64,000 nt of DNA from Candidatus Levyibacteriota bacterium (GTDB lineage: Bacteria; Patescibacteriota; Microgenomatia; Levybacterales; UBA12049). Of the stretch, positions 39,393-48,429 are shown in pieces (the stretch's first letter is position 1; every line of letters begins with the position of its first letter). The notes beneath the pieces are model-generated. The model was not told the origin of the DNA. It searched no databases and saw only the letters and a program-made list of their open reading frames with translations. Location: contig JACPLG010000008.1 of assembly GCA_016186625.1 (NCBI GenBank), forward strand, positions 80,689 through 144,688, in the 5' to 3' direction. The position numbers and the translations under genes are program-made.

Positions 39393-39467
39393 GGTGGATG
39401 TAGCTCAGTGGTAGAGCTCCTGGTTGTGGTCCAGGTGGCCGCGGGTTCGATCCCCGTCATCCACCCA
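39393..39467 (+). tRNA. tRNA-His (anticodon GTG) with G(-1)
   Basis: gGTGGATGTAGCTCAGTGGTAGAGCTCCTGGTTGTGGTCCAGGTGGCCGCGGGTTCGATCCCCGTCATCCACCCA. Confidence 0.8.
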
Positions 39468-39898
39468 TTCGACTCACTTCGTTCGCTCATGGCTGTAAGC
39501 CGGAGTCGAATGTCCTGAGTTCATCGAAGGACAAAATGTCTTTTTTCATTTACATTCTCCGTAGCTCATCCAATCAACTATATATTGGACAAACGAATAA
39601 TTTTGAAAATCGGACAAAGCAACATATTGCAAAAGATTGTAAAGCAGCGAAATTTACTAAAGATCATGAAGACTTCAAGCCCGTTTATAAAGAGGAGTAC
39701 CCTACAAGATTAGAAGCAATGAGAAGAGAAGCACAGATTAAAAAATGGTCAAGAGCAAAAAAAGAAGCGCTTATTGCAGGAAATTTGAAAGAACTTAAAA
39801 ATTTAAGCAAAAAGAAATAGTAAGTGAGATCATCGAGCCTGAGCCTGAGGTTCACTTCAGAGTCGAAGACCTGTCGAACCATCCCCGTCATCCACCCA
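39468..39898 (+). mobile_element. Minimal tRNA-integrated cassette: GIY-YIG nuclease gene bounded by a 16-bp direct repeat of the tRNA-His 3' end and ATTCGAC.../...GTCGAACC termini
   Basis: CCCCGTCATCCACCCA at 39453-39468 and again at 39883-39898; left end ATTCGACTCACTTCGTTCGCTCA, right end GAGTCGAAGACCTGTCGAACCAT. Confidence 0.55.
39536..39820 (+). CDS. GIY-YIG nuclease-domain protein (UPF0213/YhbQ-like)
   Basis: FFIYILRSSSNQLYIGQTNNFENRTKQH matches the GIY-YIG core. Confidence 0.7.
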   Translation: MSFFIYILRSSSNQLYIGQTNNFENRTKQHIAKDCKAAKFTKDHEDFKPVYKEEYPTRLEAMRREAQIKKWSRAKKEALIAGNLKELKNLSKKK

Positions 39899-40068: not shown

Positions 40069-41019
40069 TCAATAACCTAAGTGTTTACCAAATGTAGTTG
40101 TGTCAATTGGTAAACTGGCTACATATTGGTTTATGCAATATCTTAAAGTTTCTCTCTTATTTTGCCATCTATGGTTATTGCCCAGTTTCTTAGCTATTTG
40201 TTTCTCAAAAGAAGTTTCCCATATGGCCTTAAGCAATACCATATCATCTGTAAAACTTGATAGATCCTCTAACTCAAGATCGCTGGCCGTAGCATCAATT
40301 GTATCTAAATATTTTCTTATCTGTTTTTCACTGAAATCATAAGCTAACTGACTAGTACCATCAGGTGCTGTGAAGTTCCAGAATCGGCCAGTGAAAGGGC
40401 TAGTGATTACATCGAATCCCACAGGAGCGATAAACTTATGCTCAAAATCCATGACTCCACCTGGCAACATATTAAATGGTCCTAAATCACCGTGCGTTAA
40501 AACTTGTGGTAGATTGACGACTCTTGCCTCTGCCATAGCGAATGCTTTCTCGAGATCTTCTATGCTAAGGTCAGGATTTTCCTCGATAACATTATCTAAG
40601 TTAACCCCGTCACGCAAATTACCTTGTTCTCTAAATGAAGGAGCAGATTTTAACTGTGCAACTAAAAATAGACTTGCAATACGGCAGTATTGATCAAAGG
40701 AAGTCTCTTCTATGACGCCGGTGGCCGCGTATTCTTCCCTAAATATATCGCCAAAAGTTCTAGTGCCTAGAGAGGATTCGGTAAAATAGTATGTATCAGC
40801 ATCAATTTCTCCATCACTTAATACTTCTGGAGTAGGAAATCCCATATCATGCAGAGTTCTTGCAAACTCTACTTCATCACGGATACTATTCTTAGACCCA
40901 GTTTTTAAATATCTGTCGCCATAGATAGATAGGTAGACAATTCCTTGACTTATAGTACGTGCCTTTACAAAATGCCAATCAGTATTCTCGAGTTGCAGCT
41001 GTTGTTTTAATACTTCCAT
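40069..41019 (-). CDS. Aminoglycoside/choline-kinase-like phosphotransferase (APH fold)
   Basis: THGDLGPFNML (Brenner motif HGDxxxxN) and VMDFEH (D-F/W-E metal-binding motif). Confidence 0.7.
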   Translation of the reverse strand: MEVLKQQLQLENTDWHFVKARTISQGIVYLSIYGDRYLKTGSKNSIRDEVEFARTLHDMGFPTPEVLSDGEIDADTYYFTESSLGTRTFGDIFREEYAATGVIEETSFDQYCRIASLFLVAQLKSAPSFREQGNLRDGVNLDNVIEENPDLSIEDLEKAFAMAEARVVNLPQVLTHGDLGPFNMLPGGVMDFEHKFIAPVGFDVITSPFTGRFWNFTAPDGTSQLAYDFSEKQIRKYLDTIDATASDLELEDLSSFTDDMVLLKAIWETSFEKQIAKKLGNNHRWQNKRETLRYCINQYVASLPIDTTTFGKHLGY

Positions 41020-41224
41020 CGTTAATTAGACCATAAACGAATAATTATTACATATACGTAGACGAGGCGGTAAGGTGCAATCTTACTATTTACAAAATAG
41101 ATTTTATACTATTAATTCTAATAGTCAATATCAGGGAGTTTATGCAACTTATGGAAACTCCTAATCACATAACTCAAAAAGCCTTGAGGCTATATAACTA
41201 GGCAAAATAAAACTTAATCATCCT

Positions 41225-42385
41225 CTACATTAAACTGAGGAGGTTGGGCCTTATTCCAAATGTTGAATAAAGATCGTTGAGCGTCATTTCGGGATGTTTT
41301 TTACGCCGAGACTCCGACTCAGAAAGTATTTTACGCATTGAACTCTCCTCACCCGATATAGCTTCCGCAACTCTGGGCGTAGACATGGATCCATCGATGA
41401 AAGACTGTAAAACACTTTGGACATTCACAAAACCCTCCGACTGCAACCAAACTTCCTCTATCAGGGAGCGAACAATTTTTCTAAGTACGTACGAGTGCCT
41501 CTTATTTCCGGGCATTAACCCTTCTGCTGTTAGCTCATCTATCACGCGACAAAGATTCGCCATGTAATGAGCATCCAAATCAGAGATATGACCAAATGTA
41601 CCCTTGAATTGCTCCGCTAGCTTTCTCCATGGCATCAATGAAAATTTATTTTCACCTGTTAGTGCACGTTCAACCCTGCCCATGCCCAGGCCCACATCAA
41701 ATGCCGTGTGTTCAAAAGGAACTACTGATGTGCCTTCGGAAATTCCATCAATGTCCACAATCCTACCAATCTGCAGACAATCAGATAAGTCTTGATTCTG
41801 ATCATAGCCTTCTGAAGCGAACCACGCGATTACCCCACGCCCGTGCAGGTCCCCTTCTCCAAAGCTCCATTCATGCTTCAATACTTCAGGGTCTTCAATG
41901 ATACGAACCTGATTTGGGTCTAGAGAGGCAGACCTTAGTGCCGACTCTAGAGGATGACCTCCAATTGTAGAGAATATTAGGTTCTTTTTGTTAAGCCCCA
42001 GTGCACTTAACATATCAACAAAATATTCCATTGCCTTATCATGACTCACATTGAAAAGACCGCTGCCAAGCATGTGAAATAATGATGTATAATTTATATC
42101 TACACGAGCAGTGTCAAAAGTGCCGCCAGTTCCACCTAAGCGAAGACATTTTTGTATAAAAGCAAAATTGGAAGGGGTCGTATCACCGGAGAACATCGAT
42201 TTGAACGGAGTGATTGTCGCATTAGTAAACAAAACTGTGGGATCGTCAATGACTAATGGGAAAGAATCGTGCGTCGTAAATCCATTGTCTTGATGATATT
42301 CCAGAAATGAAGATTTTATAGATTCTACTACAGCGACTTCTTTATCTTGATGATATTCCTGAGGTGAAGATTTTATAGATTCCAT
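41225..42385 (-). CDS. Standalone alanyl-tRNA synthetase catalytic-domain paralog (no editing or C-Ala domains)
   Basis: DPTVLFTNATITPFK, IQKCLRLGG...TSLFHMLGSGLFN, DVGLGMGRVERAL, HSYVLRKIVRSL align to AlaRS residues about 1-370 (LLFTNAGMNQFK, CVRAGG...HTFFEMLGNFSFG, DTGMGLERI, RGYVLRRIIRRA). Confidence 0.7.
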   Translation of the reverse strand: MESIKSSPQEYHQDKEVAVVESIKSSFLEYHQDNGFTTHDSFPLVIDDPTVLFTNATITPFKSMFSGDTTPSNFAFIQKCLRLGGTGGTFDTARVDINYTSLFHMLGSGLFNVSHDKAMEYFVDMLSALGLNKKNLIFSTIGGHPLESALRSASLDPNQVRIIEDPEVLKHEWSFGEGDLHGRGVIAWFASEGYDQNQDLSDCLQIGRIVDIDGISEGTSVVPFEHTAFDVGLGMGRVERALTGENKFSLMPWRKLAEQFKGTFGHISDLDAHYMANLCRVIDELTAEGLMPGNKRHSYVLRKIVRSLIEEVWLQSEGFVNVQSVLQSFIDGSMSTPRVAEAISGEESSMRKILSESESRRKKHPEMTLNDLYSTFGIRPNLLSLM

Positions 42386-42509
42386 TACAGCGACTCCTTA
42401 GATGCTGGGCAAGTTTTATAAAAGTACAGTATAGTATCATAATGAACTAATCTTGTAAAATAATTAAAACTACCTTCATTAAATGAGAACAGACCATGAA
42501 GGGTATCTA

Positions 42510-43142
42510 TCACTCGTGATCGCCCAGTCTCCATACGTTACCGCGGCCCACTTTATGCTCACCCGTTGAGTCTATACGCAAGGCAGCACCCTCGCCAATT
42601 GCCACAAAAGGGCATGTGCCAACCTTATGAAAACTTGTCCATGCAGACCTGGCTTTATCGAAGGAATCTTGATTTGCGTGCACCTGCACACAAGCAGAAA
42701 CGATCCCCCAACCTTTCCTCACCTCAAATACGTCGCTACCTTCGTGAATATACCAAGAAGATAGAGCCTGAGCCCCGGCGCTCATTCCAGCAATGTGAGC
42801 ACCTCGCTCAAAAGCCGCAATTAAAAGCCCCACAATGTCCCATTCAGAAAATAATCGCATTAACTGATCAGTATCACCACCACCTAAATATATCACCGAT
42901 GAAGACTTGATCGCATTGATCGCATACTCACGACCCTTTTTCTCCGTAGGGACCAAAACCTTAAATTTATCGCCAAAAACAGATGTAATGGAATCAGAAT
43001 ATGCAACGCTATCTTGTGCCGCAAAGCCAAAAAAAGCGAAGGTAGATCCTTCAGACGCAAGAGACTTTATATCCTCATCGATCTGATATGTCTCACCGTC
43101 TCTAATTTCTCCACCACCGATTAAATAAATTGAACCTATCAT
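42510..43142 (-). CDS. Peptidase S51 family protein (dipeptidase E/cyanophycinase-like)
   Basis: HIAGMSAGAQAL (GxSAG nucleophile), downstream His/Glu candidates; 210 aa. Confidence 0.65.
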   Translation of the reverse strand: MIGSIYLIGGGEIRDGETYQIDEDIKSLASEGSTFAFFGFAAQDSVAYSDSITSVFGDKFKVLVPTEKKGREYAINAIKSSSVIYLGGGDTDQLMRLFSEWDIVGLLIAAFERGAHIAGMSAGAQALSSWYIHEGSDVFEVRKGWGIVSACVQVHANQDSFDKARSAWTSFHKVGTCPFVAIGEGAALRIDSTGEHKVGRGNVWRLGDHE

Positions 43143-44626
43143 ATCGACATACGAATCAAAGGATTTTTATTAGAGCGTATATTTGCGCTAGACTGACACA
43201 CCCCACTCATTAGCTTAACTGAAACAGCATGAGTATCAATATTTGATTTCACATCACTTATATTGATTCGTCCAAGGATAAACTCAATAAACTCACGTAT
43301 AACACGATCTTTGGCTTTCTCCCCCGTAAGTCCAGTAACGTCAGCCTGCTGTTCTAGATCACGAGCAGATATCCTAAAGAAGGCTTTGCCTTCGCCAAAC
43401 ATACCAACATTGCGAAATACGTATATTTCAAAATGATTGTTACCGCCAACCTCAAATTCATCGGAATTATCAACATCATGCTGATGCTTGGATTGATAGT
43501 TATGAATCTGAATACACTGAAAAGGACCTTGTTGAATAATAAATTGCTGATGCTTTACCCTACCATTGCCTTTATACAGATCAGCATTTGGCGCAGCCCA
43601 TGAACGCCTCGAGAAGCTACTGTGCATCAAATTCACAGAGATATTGCAAATATTCTCACCGCTCCTAAGCAGCCGAATAATGTTAAACGAATCCACCTCG
43701 CCATAATCAGAAATTTTGTCTAGGTATTGCTTCGAAGAAAGACCAGTCCGCTCGTAATCAGATCCAAAATATCTAATGTAGTCTTCCTCATTTAAATTAA
43801 GAATGAGTCCACTCGGAGTCAATGGAGATGAAAAAATCTCTAATTGATCAGGTTGCTTATCATCAACAAGGCCAGACTGATACATTTGCCAGGCCATATC
43901 GAACAAGTGATACCCACTAAATGCTACTTTTCCAAAACCATCCTTAAGACCATGAGATTCTTGGGTTATTACCTCCTGCGGAAACCTCCACGAACCATCA
44001 GCATGCATAATCTGCATCGACGTTACGGGTACATTAAATTTTTTCGCTGTCCCTGAAATCAGTTCTCGGACTTTATCGAAGCCATACTCGTATCTTCGCT
44101 GAACATCTATAGAAAAAATGGTTGGTTTGTCGGCCAGATGCAACTTGTACAGATCCAGAAGTTCACTGTAATCATCAATTAAACCCATAGCTTGAGAACG
44201 ATCAACACTGATCGCCTTCCTAGCTGTAATGGGCTTATCCATAAGAATATGCAACCCTTTGCGAAGAGCCCATTCGGCATATGCCTTATGAGCTGTAGGC
44301 TCTGTAGCAATCACAACCCCTTGTATATCAAATTTATTAACCAAAGCATCTAACATCGCCCTAGAGTGATCAGGAATGCCATCAGCTGTATCAAAAGAGT
44401 CAAGATATAACATCTCCAAATCATACCTCTGATCTTTAAGGTATGAATCCACAGTATCCATTTGCCGCTTCAGATCTACAGCTGCAATTAAGCGTATAGG
44501 ATAATCTGCAGCCAACCTAAAAAAGGCAGGGACATAGATCCGCTTCGCATGAGGCCCAACTCCAATTAGCAGTAAATTTACAGTTTTCATATTGTTATCT
44601 TTTATCATATTATCAATCTTATACAC
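43139..44626 (-). CDS. Gfo/Idh/MocA-family NAD(P)-dependent oxidoreductase-like protein
   Basis: VNLLLIGVGPHAKRIYVPAF (Rossmann), GVVIATEPTAHKAYAEWALRKGLHILMDKP (EKP-type motif). Its 3' end overlaps the start of the S51 gene by 4 nt. Confidence 0.55.
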   Translation of the reverse strand: MYKIDNMIKDNNMKTVNLLLIGVGPHAKRIYVPAFFRLAADYPIRLIAAVDLKRQMDTVDSYLKDQRYDLEMLYLDSFDTADGIPDHSRAMLDALVNKFDIQGVVIATEPTAHKAYAEWALRKGLHILMDKPITARKAISVDRSQAMGLIDDYSELLDLYKLHLADKPTIFSIDVQRRYEYGFDKVRELISGTAKKFNVPVTSMQIMHADGSWRFPQEVITQESHGLKDGFGKVAFSGYHLFDMAWQMYQSGLVDDKQPDQLEIFSSPLTPSGLILNLNEEDYIRYFGSDYERTGLSSKQYLDKISDYGEVDSFNIIRLLRSGENICNISVNLMHSSFSRRSWAAPNADLYKGNGRVKHQQFIIQQGPFQCIQIHNYQSKHQHDVDNSDEFEVGGNNHFEIYVFRNVGMFGEGKAFFRISARDLEQQADVTGLTGEKAKDRVIREFIEFILGRINISDVKSNIDTHAVSVKLMSGVCQSSANIRSNKNPLIRMSI

Positions 44627-44673
44627 AACTGCAAGAATGCACTTCTTGTCAATTCACTTCTTTCTATGATACG

Positions 44674-45561
44674 ATGAGATCCTTTAAGTTACAAATTAGG
44701 AGCAATGGACAGAATATGAACCACATAGAGAATCGAGAGAATATGAACCACATAGAGAATCAATGGGGAGTTGAACGTCTGAGTCCAGATAACTCAGCCG
44801 AAGCATGTGAGCTCCTACCTGCACTCGCATCAAACGAAATTGCAGCTATTCAAATTGCTCAATTCTTAGGTAGACAAGACTTGGATATCGTCATTCAGAA
44901 CATGAGCCGACAAAATATACAATGGTACGAAAACAGAGAGTTCCAACAGGGTAGAATTGGCATAAACGCCACAGGATTTGGTTATGAATCTGGCGGCAAG
45001 CAAAGATACTTTGACCTCACCCCAGAAGCCGCGAAGGTTCGAGATGAAATATTTAAGGGAGCTTCAAACCCAATTGATAAAATTATTAAATTCTTTTCAT
45101 CAAATGGATATAATGCATCCATAGCGACTGAACCAGGCATGCAAAATGCGCAGTACTTCGCAGGCCTCATTAGAGCAATGGGAGCAAAAAGCACGCTGCA
45201 TTTTGACTATGCTCCAAACCAGCTTCCAGGCTGGAGCGTCTCTGATGCAGATGAACAATATGGTCTCGTTTTATACCTTCAGATGCCAACTGAAGGAGGG
45301 GAATTAACTGTCTACAATCGCCCATGGCAGCCAGAAGATGAGTCCCACAACAATGATATTGGACAAAAGGGAAGATACGGATTCGCAGAGGATTTCCTAG
45401 AAGACACACCGCATGCCACAATATCGCCTAAAGCGGGAGACTTAGTAGTATTTAAAACACGCAACTTCCATCAAGTAGCGGCTATCAACTCAGATAAACC
45501 AAGATTAGGCCTTACCACCTTCATGACATTGAAAGATGGGTCGCTATCGTTGTGGAGCTAA
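44674..45561 (+). CDS. 2-oxoglutarate/Fe(II)-dependent oxygenase-like protein
   Basis: LHFDYAP (HxD), GGELTVYN, TRNFHQV (distal His). In-frame 24-bp tandem duplication at the N-terminus (MNHIENRENMNHIEN). Confidence 0.5.
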   Translation: MRSFKLQIRSNGQNMNHIENRENMNHIENQWGVERLSPDNSAEACELLPALASNEIAAIQIAQFLGRQDLDIVIQNMSRQNIQWYENREFQQGRIGINATGFGYESGGKQRYFDLTPEAAKVRDEIFKGASNPIDKIIKFFSSNGYNASIATEPGMQNAQYFAGLIRAMGAKSTLHFDYAPNQLPGWSVSDADEQYGLVLYLQMPTEGGELTVYNRPWQPEDESHNNDIGQKGRYGFAEDFLEDTPHATISPKAGDLVVFKTRNFHQVAAINSDKPRLGLTTFMTLKDGSLSLWS

Positions 45562-45575
45562 CTACACACATTTAC

Positions 45576-46409
45576 TTACCAAAGATCTGACTCGAAAAAA
45601 CTGCGAAACTTCCTCATAACCTCTTTAGTAAAGGGCCCAACTGATCCGTCCCCCACGGGAACGTCATTCAACTTGGTCACGGGCATTATGTCCATTCCGG
45701 TAGCGGTGATAAACAGTTCCGACGCACCTAGTAGCTCCTGTACAGAAAAGTCACAAGCCTCAGCCCGAACAGAAAGTTGTAATTTATTAATTATGATATC
45801 GCGCGTAATCCCCTCCAGAATCCCTGTTTTAGGAGTCACAAGAGAACCATCTATTGCTGCAAATACATTACTCATCGTTCCTTCGCGTACCATACCTTCG
45901 GAATGATAGATAACCTCATCTATGTCATTAGGGATAGAATTGAATTGACGAATCGCCTCTATGTAATTATTCGTTTTGGCTTGTGGTTTATACCTTTGAA
46001 ATTCGGAAAGTAAAACATGGACTCCGTTAGCATAATCTTCAGAGGGGCGCGGAATACGCTGGTCAACCATAATAACTATTGTAGGTATTTTCGTTGTAGA
46101 GAGTGTCATTGAGGGCCCACCAGAAATAGTGACACGCATAACCTTTTCGCCCTCAACAGACTCATTCGCTTTAAGTGTTTGTACCACCCACTCAGTAATC
46201 AGCTCTTTTGGCCAAGGCAAATTCAGTGATATTTCCTGACAAGATCGATAAAGCCTATCTATATGTTTTTCTAACATAAACGGACGCCCCTTTGAAGTCA
46301 TCATAAACTCAAAAACAGCGTAGCCACGCGAATAGCCTAAATCACGTGGAGATATAAGCAGATCATCTTCATTGACAAGTTGACCATTTAAGAAATGCAC
46401 ACTCTTCAT
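45576..46409 (-). CDS. Class IV (fold type IV) PLP aminotransferase (BCAT/DAAT/ADCL family)
   Basis: AKTNNYIEAI (catalytic Lys..NYL), EGTMSNVFAA, GILEGITR. Confidence 0.7.
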   Translation of the reverse strand: MKSVHFLNGQLVNEDDLLISPRDLGYSRGYAVFEFMMTSKGRPFMLEKHIDRLYRSCQEISLNLPWPKELITEWVVQTLKANESVEGEKVMRVTISGGPSMTLSTTKIPTIVIMVDQRIPRPSEDYANGVHVLLSEFQRYKPQAKTNNYIEAIRQFNSIPNDIDEVIYHSEGMVREGTMSNVFAAIDGSLVTPKTGILEGITRDIIINKLQLSVRAEACDFSVQELLGASELFITATGMDIMPVTKLNDVPVGDGSVGPFTKEVMRKFRSFFESDLW

Positions 46410-46577
46410 AAAATAAATTACCTCTTATTATACACCCCTCCATGTCCCACCCTACGGTACTGCAAGGATGAGCGGAACACTTAGAGCCCGAGGCGTGCAA
46501 TGATACTAGATGGAGAGTAAGCTATACGAATTCAGTGAAAGAGGTGCGATAAAATGCTAGTTCTTGTGCTTGGAGAG

Positions 46578-46614
46578 TGCTATAATAGGTCCGAACATCA
46601 TTCGGTAGGCTACC
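46578..46614 (+). promoter_or_regulatory. Extended -10 promoter TGCTATAAT followed by palindrome CCGAACATCATTCGG (copy 1)
   Basis: Near-identical 37-nt block repeated at 47259-47296. Confidence 0.5.
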
Positions 46615-46681
46615 CCAAGTTTTTTGGCCTCGATTTTTGACACCCAGATTCGCAAGTTCGAACCTTTGGTATAATACTTTT

Positions 46682-47194
46682 ATGCAGAAAACTAGCAAAC
46701 CATTAGCACATATTATTATTGGATTTGTAGGTTCTGGAAAGACAACATTTGCTCGTAAACTTGAAAAAGAAACAGGAGCCGTTCGGTTTACCAAAGATGA
46801 ATGGATGGTAAGAGTATTTGGAAATACTCCTCCTAAAGACAAATTTGAAGAATATGATAGTAAAATGACATCGCTTGCAACAGAAATGGCGCTTAAATGC
46901 TTAAAAGCAGGAATAAGTGTCATTATTGACGAAGGATTTTGGGTAAAAGAGCACCGAGAAGCAATCAGAGAAAAAGTAAATAGTGTGGGTGCTATCCCAA
47001 AACTTTATTATATTGAAGCACCTTTTGAGACGATGAAAGCAAGAACTTTAAGAAGAACAGAAAATCCTCCTGTTGATTCTTTTACGATTGACGAAGAATC
47101 TTTTAATCAATACTGGAGACATTTTCAGCCTCCCGATAAAGATGAAGAATTTAAATTAATAAGTCAAGAAGATTTAAACCAACCGCTACGATAA
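46682..47194 (+). CDS. P-loop NTPase/kinase (AAA_33, zeta-toxin/CPT-like)
   Basis: IIIGFVGSGKTTFARKL (Walker A), DEGFW (Walker B-like); start at internal ATG. Confidence 0.6.
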   Translation: MQKTSKPLAHIIIGFVGSGKTTFARKLEKETGAVRFTKDEWMVRVFGNTPPKDKFEEYDSKMTSLATEMALKCLKAGISVIIDEGFWVKEHREAIREKVNSVGAIPKLYYIEAPFETMKARTLRRTENPPVDSFTIDEESFNQYWRHFQPPDKDEEFKLISQEDLNQPLR

Positions 47195-47258
47195 AGTCTT
47201 TTTCAATATAGAACCGCAAACGCGGTATTGTAAAGCTCTATTTCCTGAAGTTGCAGTT

Positions 47259-47296
47259 TGCTATAATAAGTCCGAACATCGTTCGGCAGGCTACCC
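47259..47296 (+). promoter_or_regulatory. Extended -10 promoter TGCTATAAT followed by perfect palindrome CCGAACATCGTTCGG (copy 2)
   Basis: tgctataataagtccgaacatcgttcggcaggctaccc. Confidence 0.5.
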
Positions 47297-47349
47297 ATTT
47301 TTAGCCCTATAGTTTATTTAAGGCTCATTTTTTGATATAATTCCTCCTT

Positions 47350-48429
47350 ATGCCGCAAGACAGACAATTTGAGGAACGACAAAGAGAAAGCGAGCCATCG
47401 CCTTTGATATCAATTACAGCTGTAGGATTTGAACACAGATTTTATAATATTCAATGTTTAGGATCTGTTTTTGAACAAACACACGTAGCCCTGTCGGCGA
47501 ACAGATCGGCAAGAAATATAGTCTATTTAGAAGATGCAGGGAAGACCGTAGTAGTCGCAGATGCACGAAAAAGAGACGTTGAGGTATTTGGACTTGCAGG
47601 TTTTTTAGTAAAGGAAGCTTTTGTGGCACAATTCAGAACCGAGCCCGACAGGACCTATGTTGCAGCTATGGTAAGAAAAATTGGGACGGAAATTTCAAGA
47701 GGCGACTTCTCGAGTCTGCCCGTAACAAGCGTCCAAAATTTTGTTCTGAATCTAGGTCTTGATGATATAAGGACAGACAGATATTTTGATGTTGAATTTG
47801 AAGCTCATACGCCAGGAGCTATTAGAAACGATAATAAATCCCAAGAAAGATTCCAGAGACTATCAGCAGAAGCCATTAGTAAGTGGGAGAGTGGTCAATT
47901 TGATGAGTCTTTAAGTGCTTACAAACGTGCTAAAGCTGTAATCCACGCATCCGGAGCAGCAAGAAATCCAGAAATTGTCCAACAAATTAGAAGATTAGTA
48001 AAAGAATTAGCTAATAATCCTCAAGGCGGAAATATCGTTTTACTTTTAGGAGAAAGTCATTTGCCGGTCATTGACATGCTTCAAAGACAAATTGGCAATA
48101 TGCCATCTGTCACGTTCGACAAGAAAAGAGGAAAAGTTTTTGCTGACAGCCCAGAAGGAAAATTGGATAAAGCTATGTTATCTAAAGAACAAGCACCTGA
48201 TTTAACCTATGTCCAATCTCTTTTACTTGTTCATGCTATTGGCGAGTTGGCTCAAATGTATATGGCGAGCCAAGATATGGGAACTTTTATGACAAATTAT
48301 GAGGATGTTTATAAAAAATGCGCAGAGATTACAGAACGGTTAAGCATCGATGAGATTAGACAATTATGTGAGAGTAGAACTCAAATTGGCCAATACTTTC
48401 TAAGAAAAATATTACCCAATCTCCGTTAA
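47350..48429 (+). CDS. Hypothetical protein (GC-richer, 359 aa)
   Basis: No recognisable motif; follows operator copy 2. Confidence 0.4.
   Translation: MPQDRQFEERQRESEPSPLISITAVGFEHRFYNIQCLGSVFEQTHVALSANRSARNIVYLEDAGKTVVVADARKRDVEVFGLAGFLVKEAFVAQFRTEPDRTYVAAMVRKIGTEISRGDFSSLPVTSVQNFVLNLGLDDIRTDRYFDVEFEAHTPGAIRNDNKSQERFQRLSAEAISKWESGQFDESLSAYKRAKAVIHASGAARNPEIVQQIRRLVKELANNPQGGNIVLLLGESHLPVIDMLQRQIGNMPSVTFDKKRGKVFADSPEGKLDKAMLSKEQAPDLTYVQSLLLVHAIGELAQMYMASQDMGTFMTNYEDVYKKCAEITERLSIDEIRQLCESRTQIGQYFLRKILPNLR

Follow-up and report, generated by a model that had tools for sequence, protein, structure and literature searches.

A five-gene cassette with a truncated alanyl-tRNA synthetase paralog, shared among Patescibacteria, that probably makes and trims an amino-acid-tagged small molecule

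What would a bacterium of the candidate phyla radiation (CPR, or Patescibacteria), a group with minimal genomes and almost no recognised specialised metabolism, do with a row of genes that resemble a biosynthetic pathway? The question is raised by a 64,000-nucleotide stretch of DNA from a Candidatus Levyibacteriota bacterium (contig JACPLG010000008.1, positions 80,689 to 144,688 of the forward strand; hereafter the window), in which a first reading, made from the sequence alone, grouped eight adjacent genes into an undescribed small-molecule pathway. All eight open reading frames (ORFs) are present where the sequence-only reading placed them, and its family labels, including one protein without a match, are reproduced by Pfam and NCBIfam profile searches. 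Its guess of a CPR-like genome was also correct; the source is Candidatus Levybacteria, and the protein resembling alanyl-tRNA synthetase (AlaRS) is identical to a hypothetical protein of a Levybacteria metagenome-assembled genome. The idea of a pathway and its dehydrogenase-aminotransferase-ligase logic survive the analysis given here, but the eight-gene extent and the proposed amino-sugar route do not. The unit is a conserved five-gene cassette, which probably makes and trims an amino-acid-tagged small molecule.

The extent of the unit comes from comparison with related loci, which carry L-numbers as labels. These loci were collected by looking up the sites that encode homologues of the AlaRS-like protein and of the long-form Gfo/Idh/MocA oxidoreductase (GFO-like) and by one metagenome scan with a GFO-like alignment; neighbouring ORFs were clustered, and the window proteins were used as tblastn queries. 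The unit common to the relatives consists of five genes (41225-46409), encoding an aminotransferase, an oxygenase (on the opposite strand), the GFO-like enzyme, an S51 peptidase, and the AlaRS-like protein. This core is present in Levybacteria, Saccharimonadales (61-76% identity), Nomurabacteria (45-67%), and a further lineage represented by L007 (49-63%); its genes also occur on more than a dozen (at least 14) further metagenome contigs. Gene order and orientation are mostly constant. The S51 gene always adjoins either the GFO-like or the AlaRS-like gene, and it still adjoins the latter in the two loci with a rearranged order (L006 and L110). The GFO-like gene is the most conserved member, and the oxygenase, GFO-like, and aminotransferase genes are all better conserved than that for the peptidase. 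Flanking genes are different in every genome.

The search for syntenic clusters in other Patescibacteria, proposed with the first reading, has thus recovered a conserved, non-housekeeping functional unit whose genes stay clustered rather than scattered in distant lineages, although only five of the eight genes belong to it. None of the outcomes named in advance as fatal to the pathway idea (assignment of the genes to unrelated primary-metabolism families, scattering in relatives, or loss of the residues that bind alanyl-adenylate, Ala-AMP) was found in full. The Patescibacteria literature that was searched yielded no description of this gene combination or of the clade of AlaRS paralogs. Two optional genes accompany the core in some relatives. 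One, of about 217 residues, lies between the S51 and AlaRS-like genes in seven loci (L095 8610-9260, L096 9326-9997, and five others) and is absent from the window; it gives a weak match to YqcI/YcgG (PF08892, E 2e-4). The other, in L004, encodes an FAD monooxygenase.

Composition separates the same five genes from their surroundings. The elevated GC content claimed for the cluster does not hold for the eight-gene region as a whole (0.403 vs 0.393 for the background, with 37% of equal-sized windows at least as GC-rich), but it does hold at third codon positions within the core (GC3 0.355-0.399 across its five genes vs 0.315 +/- 0.035; one-sided Mann-Whitney p = 8e-5). Codon usage, which the first reading had wanted compared with the rest of the genome, was compared within the window; the divergence of the core from the remainder exceeds that of all 797 contiguous five-gene control sets. 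The GC3 of genes 1, 7, and 8 is at background or lower (0.297 for the gene of the kinase resembling aminoglycoside phosphotransferases, APH, and 0.215 for the AAA_33 gene). Because the core stands apart in GC3 and codon usage and has variable flanks, it is taken to have been acquired horizontally, and the evidence indicates a cassette that has moved among Patescibacteria. The tight minus-strand operon of the sequence-only reading is tight only in part: the 4-nt overlap exists (43139-43142), but it is confined to the GFO-like and S51 genes, and the other gaps in the run measure 124 nt (AlaRS paralog to S51) and 205 nt (APH-like gene to AlaRS paralog). The oxygenase gene is divergent from the GFO-like gene and convergent with the aminotransferase gene.

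The most distinctive product of the cassette is the AlaRS paralog. It covers positions 2-360 of the 552 positions of Pfam tRNA-synt_2c and scores 61.5 bits against TIGR00344, for which the equivalog cutoff is 457. Its AlphaFold2 model (pLDDT 89) matches only AlaRS catalytic fragments, with TM scores of 0.72-0.75. The protein consists of the aminoacylation domain and most of the tRNA-recognition domain, without the editing and C-Ala domains. The family to which it belongs comprises 119 clusters at 90% identity, with lengths of about 367-390 residues and source names that are all of Patescibacteria type; about 27 residues, catalytic ones among them, are invariant. A scan of a genome collection with an AlaRS-like alignment returned 80 loci, all of them canonical AlaRS, and the pattern DPTLLFTNA also fits the housekeeping enzyme. 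No canonical AlaRS gene was found within the window. At the 5' end of the paralog gene a 57-nt unit is tandemly duplicated in frame (MESIKSS...EYHQD, twice), an extension that the orthologues lack.

Residues were compared by alignment to the AlaRS of Aquifex aeolicus and E. coli, with an active-site set that we take to be Arg69, Trp170, Glu209, Asn212, Val214, Asp235, and Gly237 (E. coli numbering). The paralog keeps the motif-2 Arg69, the stacking Phe (Phe90), Trp170, Val214, Asp235/Gly237, and the Arg of motif 3; in the motif-2 loop, KHND...RHH has been replaced. The EIWN of AlaRS has become an invariant QIGR in subfamily A, the one linked to the cassette, so that Glu209 of the Mg site is Gln and Asn212 of the pocket is Arg; in subfamily B the corresponding EIGN is kept and Asp235 is often Glu. 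Of the Ala-AMP-binding residues, whose absence the first reading had named as refuting, Arg69, Trp170, Val214, Asp235, and Gly237 are present, and Glu209 and Asn212 are not. Judged by its residues, the class II active site of the paralog is mostly preserved, apart from two diagnostic substitutions.

The region that would read the tRNA has changed more. An invariant C-terminal TFGIRP in the paralogs is the counterpart of the AlaRS motif DTYGFP. All 18 members of subfamily A that were examined have Ser, Ala, or Gly in place of the Asp of the AlaRS motif YDTYGFP (L-x-D-T-Y-G), an Asp that five of seven members of subfamily B keep; the equivalent of Asn303 is kept in 10 of the 18. If, as we assume, Asp400 (the motif Asp) and Asn303 of the E. 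coli enzyme are the readers of the G3:U70 base pair, subfamily A would have lost canonical reading of tRNA-Ala. Because the motif Asp is lost throughout subfamily A and the editing and C-terminal domains are absent, the AlaRS paralog is predicted not to be a translation enzyme.

A precedent for such a protein is AcmF of the ascamycin pathway in Streptomyces sp. 80H647 (Zheng et al., 2024; reviewed in PMC12945691). This protein resembles AlaRS but is truncated to the aminoacylation and tRNA-recognition domains. It N-alanylates the amine of a small molecule that has a nucleoside scaffold, and the hydrolase AcmE takes the alanine off again (PMC12945691). AcmF is reported to lack most residues for ATP and alanine activation, and it carries N219Q and D232E (PMC12945691). 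The frequent Glu at Asp235 in subfamily B corresponds to the D232E of AcmF. Compared by its description, AcmF appears to be the closest characterised functional relative of the AlaRS paralog, which has the same truncated architecture and is likewise paired with a hydrolase. An amine-acylating ligase derived from an aminoacyl-tRNA synthetase (aaRS), as the first reading imagined it, accordingly has a precedent in AcmF; the analogy to MshC on which that reading drew is functional only.

The likeness to AcmF bears on the chemistry of ligation, for which there are two candidates. The paralog could form an aminoacyl-adenylate at its retained class II site, or it could, like AcmF, make no adenylate and move alanine to an amine from Ala-tRNA(Ala) charged by the housekeeping AlaRS. 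The second possibility differs from our preferred scheme, set out below, only in this step and would fit either of the scaffolds considered here. It draws support from the shared architecture, from the retention of most of the tRNA-recognition domain, from the loss of the Mg-binding Glu, and from the identity of the substituted Asn, which is one of the two sites reported mutated in AcmF. Other residues speak against it: the paralog keeps Asp235, the motif-3 Arg, and the Arg and Phe of motif 2, unlike AcmF as described, and the Asp that would read G3:U70 is lost throughout subfamily A, with its partner Asn303 kept in little more than half of the members. The cassette is also without a dedicated AlaRS of the AcmD type. 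Transfer from tRNA is possible, though we regard it as doubtful.

The other four products have recognisable folds and intact catalytic residues. The GFO-like enzyme exceeds the Pfam gathering score for the Rossmann domain, and its model is a full, continuous two-domain Gfo/Idh/MocA fold. The model lies nearest to WlbA, GenD2, and GnnA, 3-dehydrogenases of sugars or nucleotide sugars whose partners are aminotransferases, and the top structural neighbours are almost all sugar, cyclitol, or nucleotide-sugar enzymes. A carrier-protein domain was considered for this protein on account of weak DltC matches (E 0.003). The match is spurious, because the putative attachment residue Ser313 is not conserved (Ser in 19 and Ala in 16 of 36 homologues), and the model is continuous throughout.

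The best match of the oxygenase is the WelO5 family, with a Pfam score of 70.9 against a cutoff of 27, and a profile search of the PDB with it returned only WelO5-type enzymes (E 1e-10). In WelO5-type carrier-independent halogenases the carboxylate ligand of the iron is replaced (H-x-G or H-x-A), which leaves a site for the halide. Because the H-F-D...H triad of the present protein is invariant (H-F-D in seven of seven orthologues), the oxygenase is predicted to be of the hydroxylase type, and a halogenase function was rejected. At the 5' end of its gene a 27-nt unit is tandemly duplicated in frame (NMNHIEN, twice), again an extension absent from orthologues, and the true start probably lies at about 44716-44758.

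The S51 peptidase scores 73.1 bits against a Pfam cutoff of 23.9 and falls below the equivalog cutoffs for PepE and cyanophycinase; the closest solved structures are a cyanophycinase (7uqv) and PepE (7c9b). Its Ser-His-Glu triad is intact: orthologues conserve the Ser of GMSAGA, the His of VHA(N/Q), and the Glu of GEGAA. The aminotransferase belongs to fold type IV and scores below every NCBIfam equivalog cutoff, those for D-amino acid aminotransferase (DAAT; 146.7 vs 277) and branched-chain aminotransferase (BCAT) included. The closest solved structures are 7p8o and the Bacillus DAAT. Relative to a DAAT reference sequence, the catalytic Lys is kept; of the carboxylate trap Tyr31/Arg98/His100, Tyr31 appears to be Phe, and Arg98 and His100 appear to be absent. 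The substrate would be of the D-amino acid, branched-chain amino acid, or (R)-amine/ketone class. For the same reason of fold, the 'standard route to amino sugars' of the kanosamine type, which the first reading saw in the pairing of dehydrogenase and aminotransferase, does not apply: the enzyme is an Aminotran_4 protein of fold type IV, not a DegT/AHBA-type enzyme of fold type I. The broader logic of oxidation followed by transamination is reasonable and finds its dehydrogenase half at the level of the fold, but not its aminotransferase half.

Genes for aaRSs are a recurrent company of the cassette. An aaRS or aaRS-like gene lies beside the oxygenase/GFO-like module in every locus with enough flanking sequence. 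In 13 loci it is the AlaRS paralog; in the others it is ProRS (L104, with two tandem paralogs, and L105), a LeuRS that adjoins the S51 gene and the oxygenase/aminotransferase/GFO-like module (L113), or a class I LysRS immediately upstream of the GFO-like gene (L093). That all four variants without the AlaRS-like gene have an adjacent aaRS is unlikely by chance (roughly 1e-4, assuming about 20 aaRS genes per about 900). The tandem ProRS paralogs of L104 (2045-4003) lie directly downstream of the GFO-like gene and are 43% identical over the part seen, which suggests that the second copy is specialised or resistant. In the 949-residue LeuRS of L113 (10269-13118), residues 411-515, immediately behind the editing domain, form an inserted NUDIX domain. 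ORFs of 76 residues that adjoin the oxygenase gene in L105 (3257-3487) and L107 (1-231) match the AlaRS-paralog profile weakly (E 8e-4) and may be what is left of a paralog lost where ProRS adjoins the module. A 376-residue protein of L105 was considered as a cryptic AlaRS paralog and rejected, as it shows no similarity.

The GFO-like family itself offers a second kind of context. The long-form Gfo/Idh/MocA family, with 1,099 matches, is the hub of three operon types, of which the cassette is type I; loci of GFO-like paralogs are L091-L094 and L112-L176. Type II operons (about 31 loci) carry genes for a thiamine pyrophosphate enzyme and for proteins like serine hydroxymethyltransferase, alanine racemase, and nucleoside 2-deoxyribosyltransferase, and also deoxynucleoside kinase, thymidylate-kinase-like, NUDIX, and HDAC-like genes. 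Type III operons (about 20 loci) carry genes for a TauD dioxygenase, a 2-hydroxyacid dehydrogenase, a GT28 protein, a polysaccharide deacetylase, a radical-SAM/SPASM protein, and a methyltransferase. Individual loci further contain a fusion of APH with thymidylate kinase, a CYTH-Ldh_2 fusion, and a gene resembling cytidine deaminase/nucleotidyltransferase. No description of operon types II and III was found in the literature. This context points to nucleoside chemistry at least as much as to sugar chemistry.

Subfamily B of the AlaRS paralogs lies in clusters of another kind (L009/L010, L177/L178, and L179). These contain an S66 peptidase of the MccF type, a decarboxylase of the Orn/DAP/Arg type, SAM-methyltransferase-like genes, two dCTP-deaminase-like genes, an AdoMet decarboxylase, a carbamoyltransferase, a second AlaRS-like gene of 440-469 residues, and a stand-alone class II aaRS core of 368 residues. 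The pairing of ligase and hydrolase therefore recurs, with S51 in subfamily A and the S66 peptidase in subfamily B. The subfamily-B clusters, though not the window cassette, resemble what we take to be the tailoring and immunity part of the microcin C operon (MccD, the N-terminal domain of MccE, and MccF); unlike in microcin C, no MccB or precursor peptide was seen in them.

A scheme that joins these elements can be proposed for the cassette: a scaffold resembling a sugar or nucleoside receives an amine, which is alanylated by the AlaRS paralog and later freed of its alanine by the S51 peptidase. The gene families and residues that enter the scheme are observed; we infer each reaction step and the order of the steps. 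The WelO5-like oxygenase, with its hydroxylase-type HxD motif, would hydroxylate a C-H bond, and the GFO-like enzyme would make a ketone by oxidising a secondary alcohol of a ring similar to a sugar or to ribose. The fold-IV aminotransferase would convert the ketone to an amine, to which the AlaRS paralog would join an amino acid, presumably alanine, by one of the two chemistries described above. The S51 peptidase would then hydrolyse the same amide, for self-protection, activation, or recycling. The APH-like kinase may be a tailoring or resistance gene added in this Levybacteria lineage. We hold this scheme tentatively and give it somewhat less than an even chance. A narrower version, in which the AlaRS domain acylates a free amino-nucleoside to give a puromycin-like mimic of the alanyl-tRNA 3' end or a mimic of an aminoacyl-adenylate, is unlikely. 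The alanyl-aminosugar of the sequence-only reading does not survive as a specific product and is conjecture only.

Several points weigh against the scheme. The product, the acceptor, and even whether the genes build or degrade a compound are all inferred. Known aminotransferases that act on sugars or nucleosides, such as Pur4, WlbC, and GenS2, are of fold type I, and that of the cassette is of fold type IV. The role given to the oxygenase is loosely explained. To our knowledge, the S51 enzymes characterised so far cleave Asp-containing peptides. The substitutions in the AlaRS paralog, of Glu by Gln at the Mg2+ site and of Asn by Arg in the pocket, may abolish adenylate formation or switch the amino acid. 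No transporter or regulator is conserved with the cassette, and type I cassettes are without a conserved NUDIX, phosphatase, or other nucleotide gene. The full-length aaRS genes adjacent to the module in other loci could, in such small genomes, be housekeeping copies.

Those full-length genes have a different meaning if the pathway makes an amino-acid antimetabolite. A free amino acid would be remodelled (hydroxy, oxo, amino) and ligated to alanine to give a Trojan-horse dipeptide similar to bacilysin; the S51 enzyme would be a dipeptidase, and the neighbouring full-length ProRS, LeuRS, and LysRS would be analogue-resistant copies. Four of the five enzymes come from families with characterised activity on amino acids or peptides (Aminotran_4, free-substrate 2OG oxygenase, S51 dipeptidase/cyanophycinase, and aaRS), the tandem ProRS paralogs of L104 suggest a specialised copy, and the optional YqcI/YcgG-like and FAD-monooxygenase genes are typical of amino-acid tailoring. 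The GFO-like enzyme fits less well, given that its structural neighbours are almost all enzymes of sugars, cyclitols, or nucleotide sugars and that its paralogs occur in nucleoside-type operons; we know of no characterised Gfo/Idh/MocA member that oxidises a hydroxy amino acid. On balance an antimetabolite seems rather improbable.

The cassette might instead protect its bearer as a resistance or detoxification island against aminoacyl-nucleoside or aaRS-targeting antibiotics of hosts or neighbours, with the S51 peptidase cleaving the aminoacyl group, kinases modifying the drug, and the AlaRS paralog serving as a decoy for an Ala-AMP mimic. The combination of hydrolase and aaRS does resemble immunity logic, as with the MccF-like S66 peptidase of subfamily B, APH-type kinases are recurrent neighbours, and the cassette is mobile and compositionally foreign. 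Such a function would have no need of the oxygenase, dehydrogenase, and aminotransferase, yet these keep their catalytic residues and are better conserved than the peptidase, and we consider it very unlikely. That the genes have no joint function, their adjacency being historical and the AlaRS paralog a decaying or regulatory remnant, is already disfavoured and scarcely credible: the 124- and 205-nt gaps leave room for separate promoters, but synteny extends down to 47-49% protein identity over at least three Patescibacteria lineages with all flanks changed, and the invariant residues of the paralog family include catalytic ones.

The preferred scheme, an aminated scaffold that is alanylated and then trimmed, can be set beside known systems, from each of which the cassette departs. 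In addition to the differences in residues, it diverges from the ascamycin cluster in having neither a full AlaRS like AcmD nor sulfamate-nucleoside genes, and its hydrolase is an S51 peptidase, not an alpha/beta hydrolase such as AcmE. In puromycin-type pathways the Pur10 dehydrogenase and the Pur4 aminotransferase act before aminoacyl coupling, with Pur7 (NUDIX), Pur3 (phosphatase), and the coupling enzyme Pur6 as further members. The cassette shares with the core of the puromycin, A201A, cystocin, and ADG pathways the logic of an NAD-dependent oxidoreductase, an aminotransferase, and an aminoacyl-coupling enzyme, a likeness of pathway logic only, and NUDIX and kinase genes recur around GFO-like paralogs. 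It differs in the fold type IV aminotransferase, in coupling by an aaRS paralog and not by Pur6, and in the additional 2-oxoglutarate oxygenase and S51 peptidase; the window has no NUDIX, phosphatase, or Pur6 gene of the Pur set.

A sugar 3-dehydrogenase fold beside an aminotransferase is also found in WlbA/WbpB-WlbC, GnnA-GnnB, GenD2-GenS2, and RifL-RifK/NtdC-NtdA. The GFO-like enzyme, however, is only 13-16% identical to the dehydrogenases of these pairs and has about 150 extra residues; its partner aminotransferase is of another fold class, and no nucleotide-sugar genes are conserved with the cassette. MshC, the amino acid:carrier-protein ligases, AsnA, and PoxA/GenX re-use an aaRS catalytic domain on a non-tRNA acceptor, but they derive from other aaRS classes or families, none from AlaRS, and none stands in such a gene context. 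The cassette lies outside canonical AlaRS, WelO5 halogenases, the DAAT and BCAT equivalogs, the kanosamine route, and the Pur set. By analogy it would be a case of aaRS-paralog-dependent aminoacylation of a small molecule, in unexpected organisms.

The remaining genes of the region, listed with the core and the smaller elements in Table 1, lie outside the cassette. The APH-like kinase gene, which lies downstream of the AlaRS paralog, is an accessory specific to this lineage; its orthologue is found only in the close relative L095/L099 (90% identity), and the APH-like kinases that recur beside GFO-like paralogs in L115, L139, and L144 are unrelated to it. No related locus examined carries an orthologue of the AAA_33 gene or of the hypothetical gene. 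The APH and AAA_33 genes were accordingly rejected as conserved members, and the P-loop kinase and hypothetical genes are unrelated neighbours. Upstream of each of the latter two lies a copy of a 66-nt repeat (79% identical), the 38-nt core of which occurs exactly twice in the window against an expectation of zero. The repeat contains TGCTATAAT followed by a hairpin, CCGAACATCATTCGG, with the pattern CCGAACATC(A/G)TTCGG, and probably serves both genes as promoter and 5' leader, setting genes 7 and 8 apart as a regulatory pair of their own. A scan of the region for promoters and terminators gave counts equal to those in shuffled sequence and was uninformative.

Table 1. Genes of the region and smaller elements in and around it, in window coordinates.
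Feature	Coordinates	Strand	Match or remark
APH-like kinase, 316 aa (gene 1)	40069..41019	-	Pfam PF01636, E 1.3e-9
Truncated AlaRS paralog, 386 aa, subfamily A	41225..42385	-	Pfam PF01411 tRNA-synt_2c, E 6e-22
S51 serine peptidase, 210 aa	42510..43142	-	Pfam PF03575 Peptidase_S51, E 3e-20
Long-form Gfo/Idh/MocA NAD(P) oxidoreductase (GFO-like), 495 aa	43139..44626	-	Pfam GFO_IDH_MocA
WelO5-like Fe(II)/2-oxoglutarate (2OG) oxygenase	44674..45561	+	Pfam PF22814, E 1.7e-19
Fold type IV (class IV) pyridoxal phosphate (PLP) aminotransferase, 277 aa	45576..46409	-	Pfam PF01063 Aminotran_4, E 5e-39
AAA_33 P-loop kinase-like gene (gene 7)	46637..47194	+	Pfam PF13671, E 7e-23
Hypothetical protein, 359 aa (gene 8)	47350..48429	+	No Pfam, NCBIfam, or PADLOC match
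57-nt tandem duplication, AlaRS paralog gene	42285-42398		5' end of gene, in frame
27-nt tandem duplication, oxygenase gene	44704-44757		5' end of gene, in frame
66-nt repeat, first copy	46550..46615	+	Upstream of gene 7
66-nt repeat, second copy	47231-47296		Upstream of gene 8
18-nt direct repeat, first copy	39450-39467		3' end of tRNA-His
18-nt direct repeat, second copy	39881-39898		
GIY-YIG nuclease ORF, 94 aa	39536-39820		Between the 18-nt repeats
ORF of 220 aa	37918-38580		Sub-threshold match to IS200-like Y1 transposase, E 1.3e-4

Within 39394-39898, an exact 18-nt direct repeat, ATCCCCGTCATCCACCCA, occurs at the 3' end of tRNA-His and again beyond the GIY-YIG nuclease ORF, so that the two copies flank this ORF in what looks like a 431-bp mini-element inserted into the 3' end of the tRNA gene. 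A genomic island at tRNA-His was rejected as an account of the cluster, since the duplicated 18 nt flank only the 431-bp insertion. A GIY-YIG gene also occurs near the cassette in L007. The ORF of 220 residues with the transposase match lies about 1.5 kb upstream of tRNA-His. Twelve of the 13 tRNA genes of the window, four tRNA-Leu among them, fall within 13362-39466, a high density for 26 kb. An anti-phage defence system was likewise considered for the region and rejected, as PADLOC gave no relevant matches.

The cassette would be one of the few dedicated small-molecule systems in Patescibacteria, and it could mediate interaction with the host. We know of AcmF as the single characterised truncated AlaRS paralog, and the present clade would add 119 clusters of uncharacterised paralogs to its class. 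If the aminonucleoside version of the scheme were true, the sister cassettes with ProRS, LeuRS, and LysRS would use other amino acids, the S51 and S66 peptidases would confer immunity, and the whole would amount to a family of aaRS-templated translation inhibitors from ultra-small episymbionts. The enzymes of the cassette could reveal new aminoacyl-conjugate chemistry or translation inhibitors.

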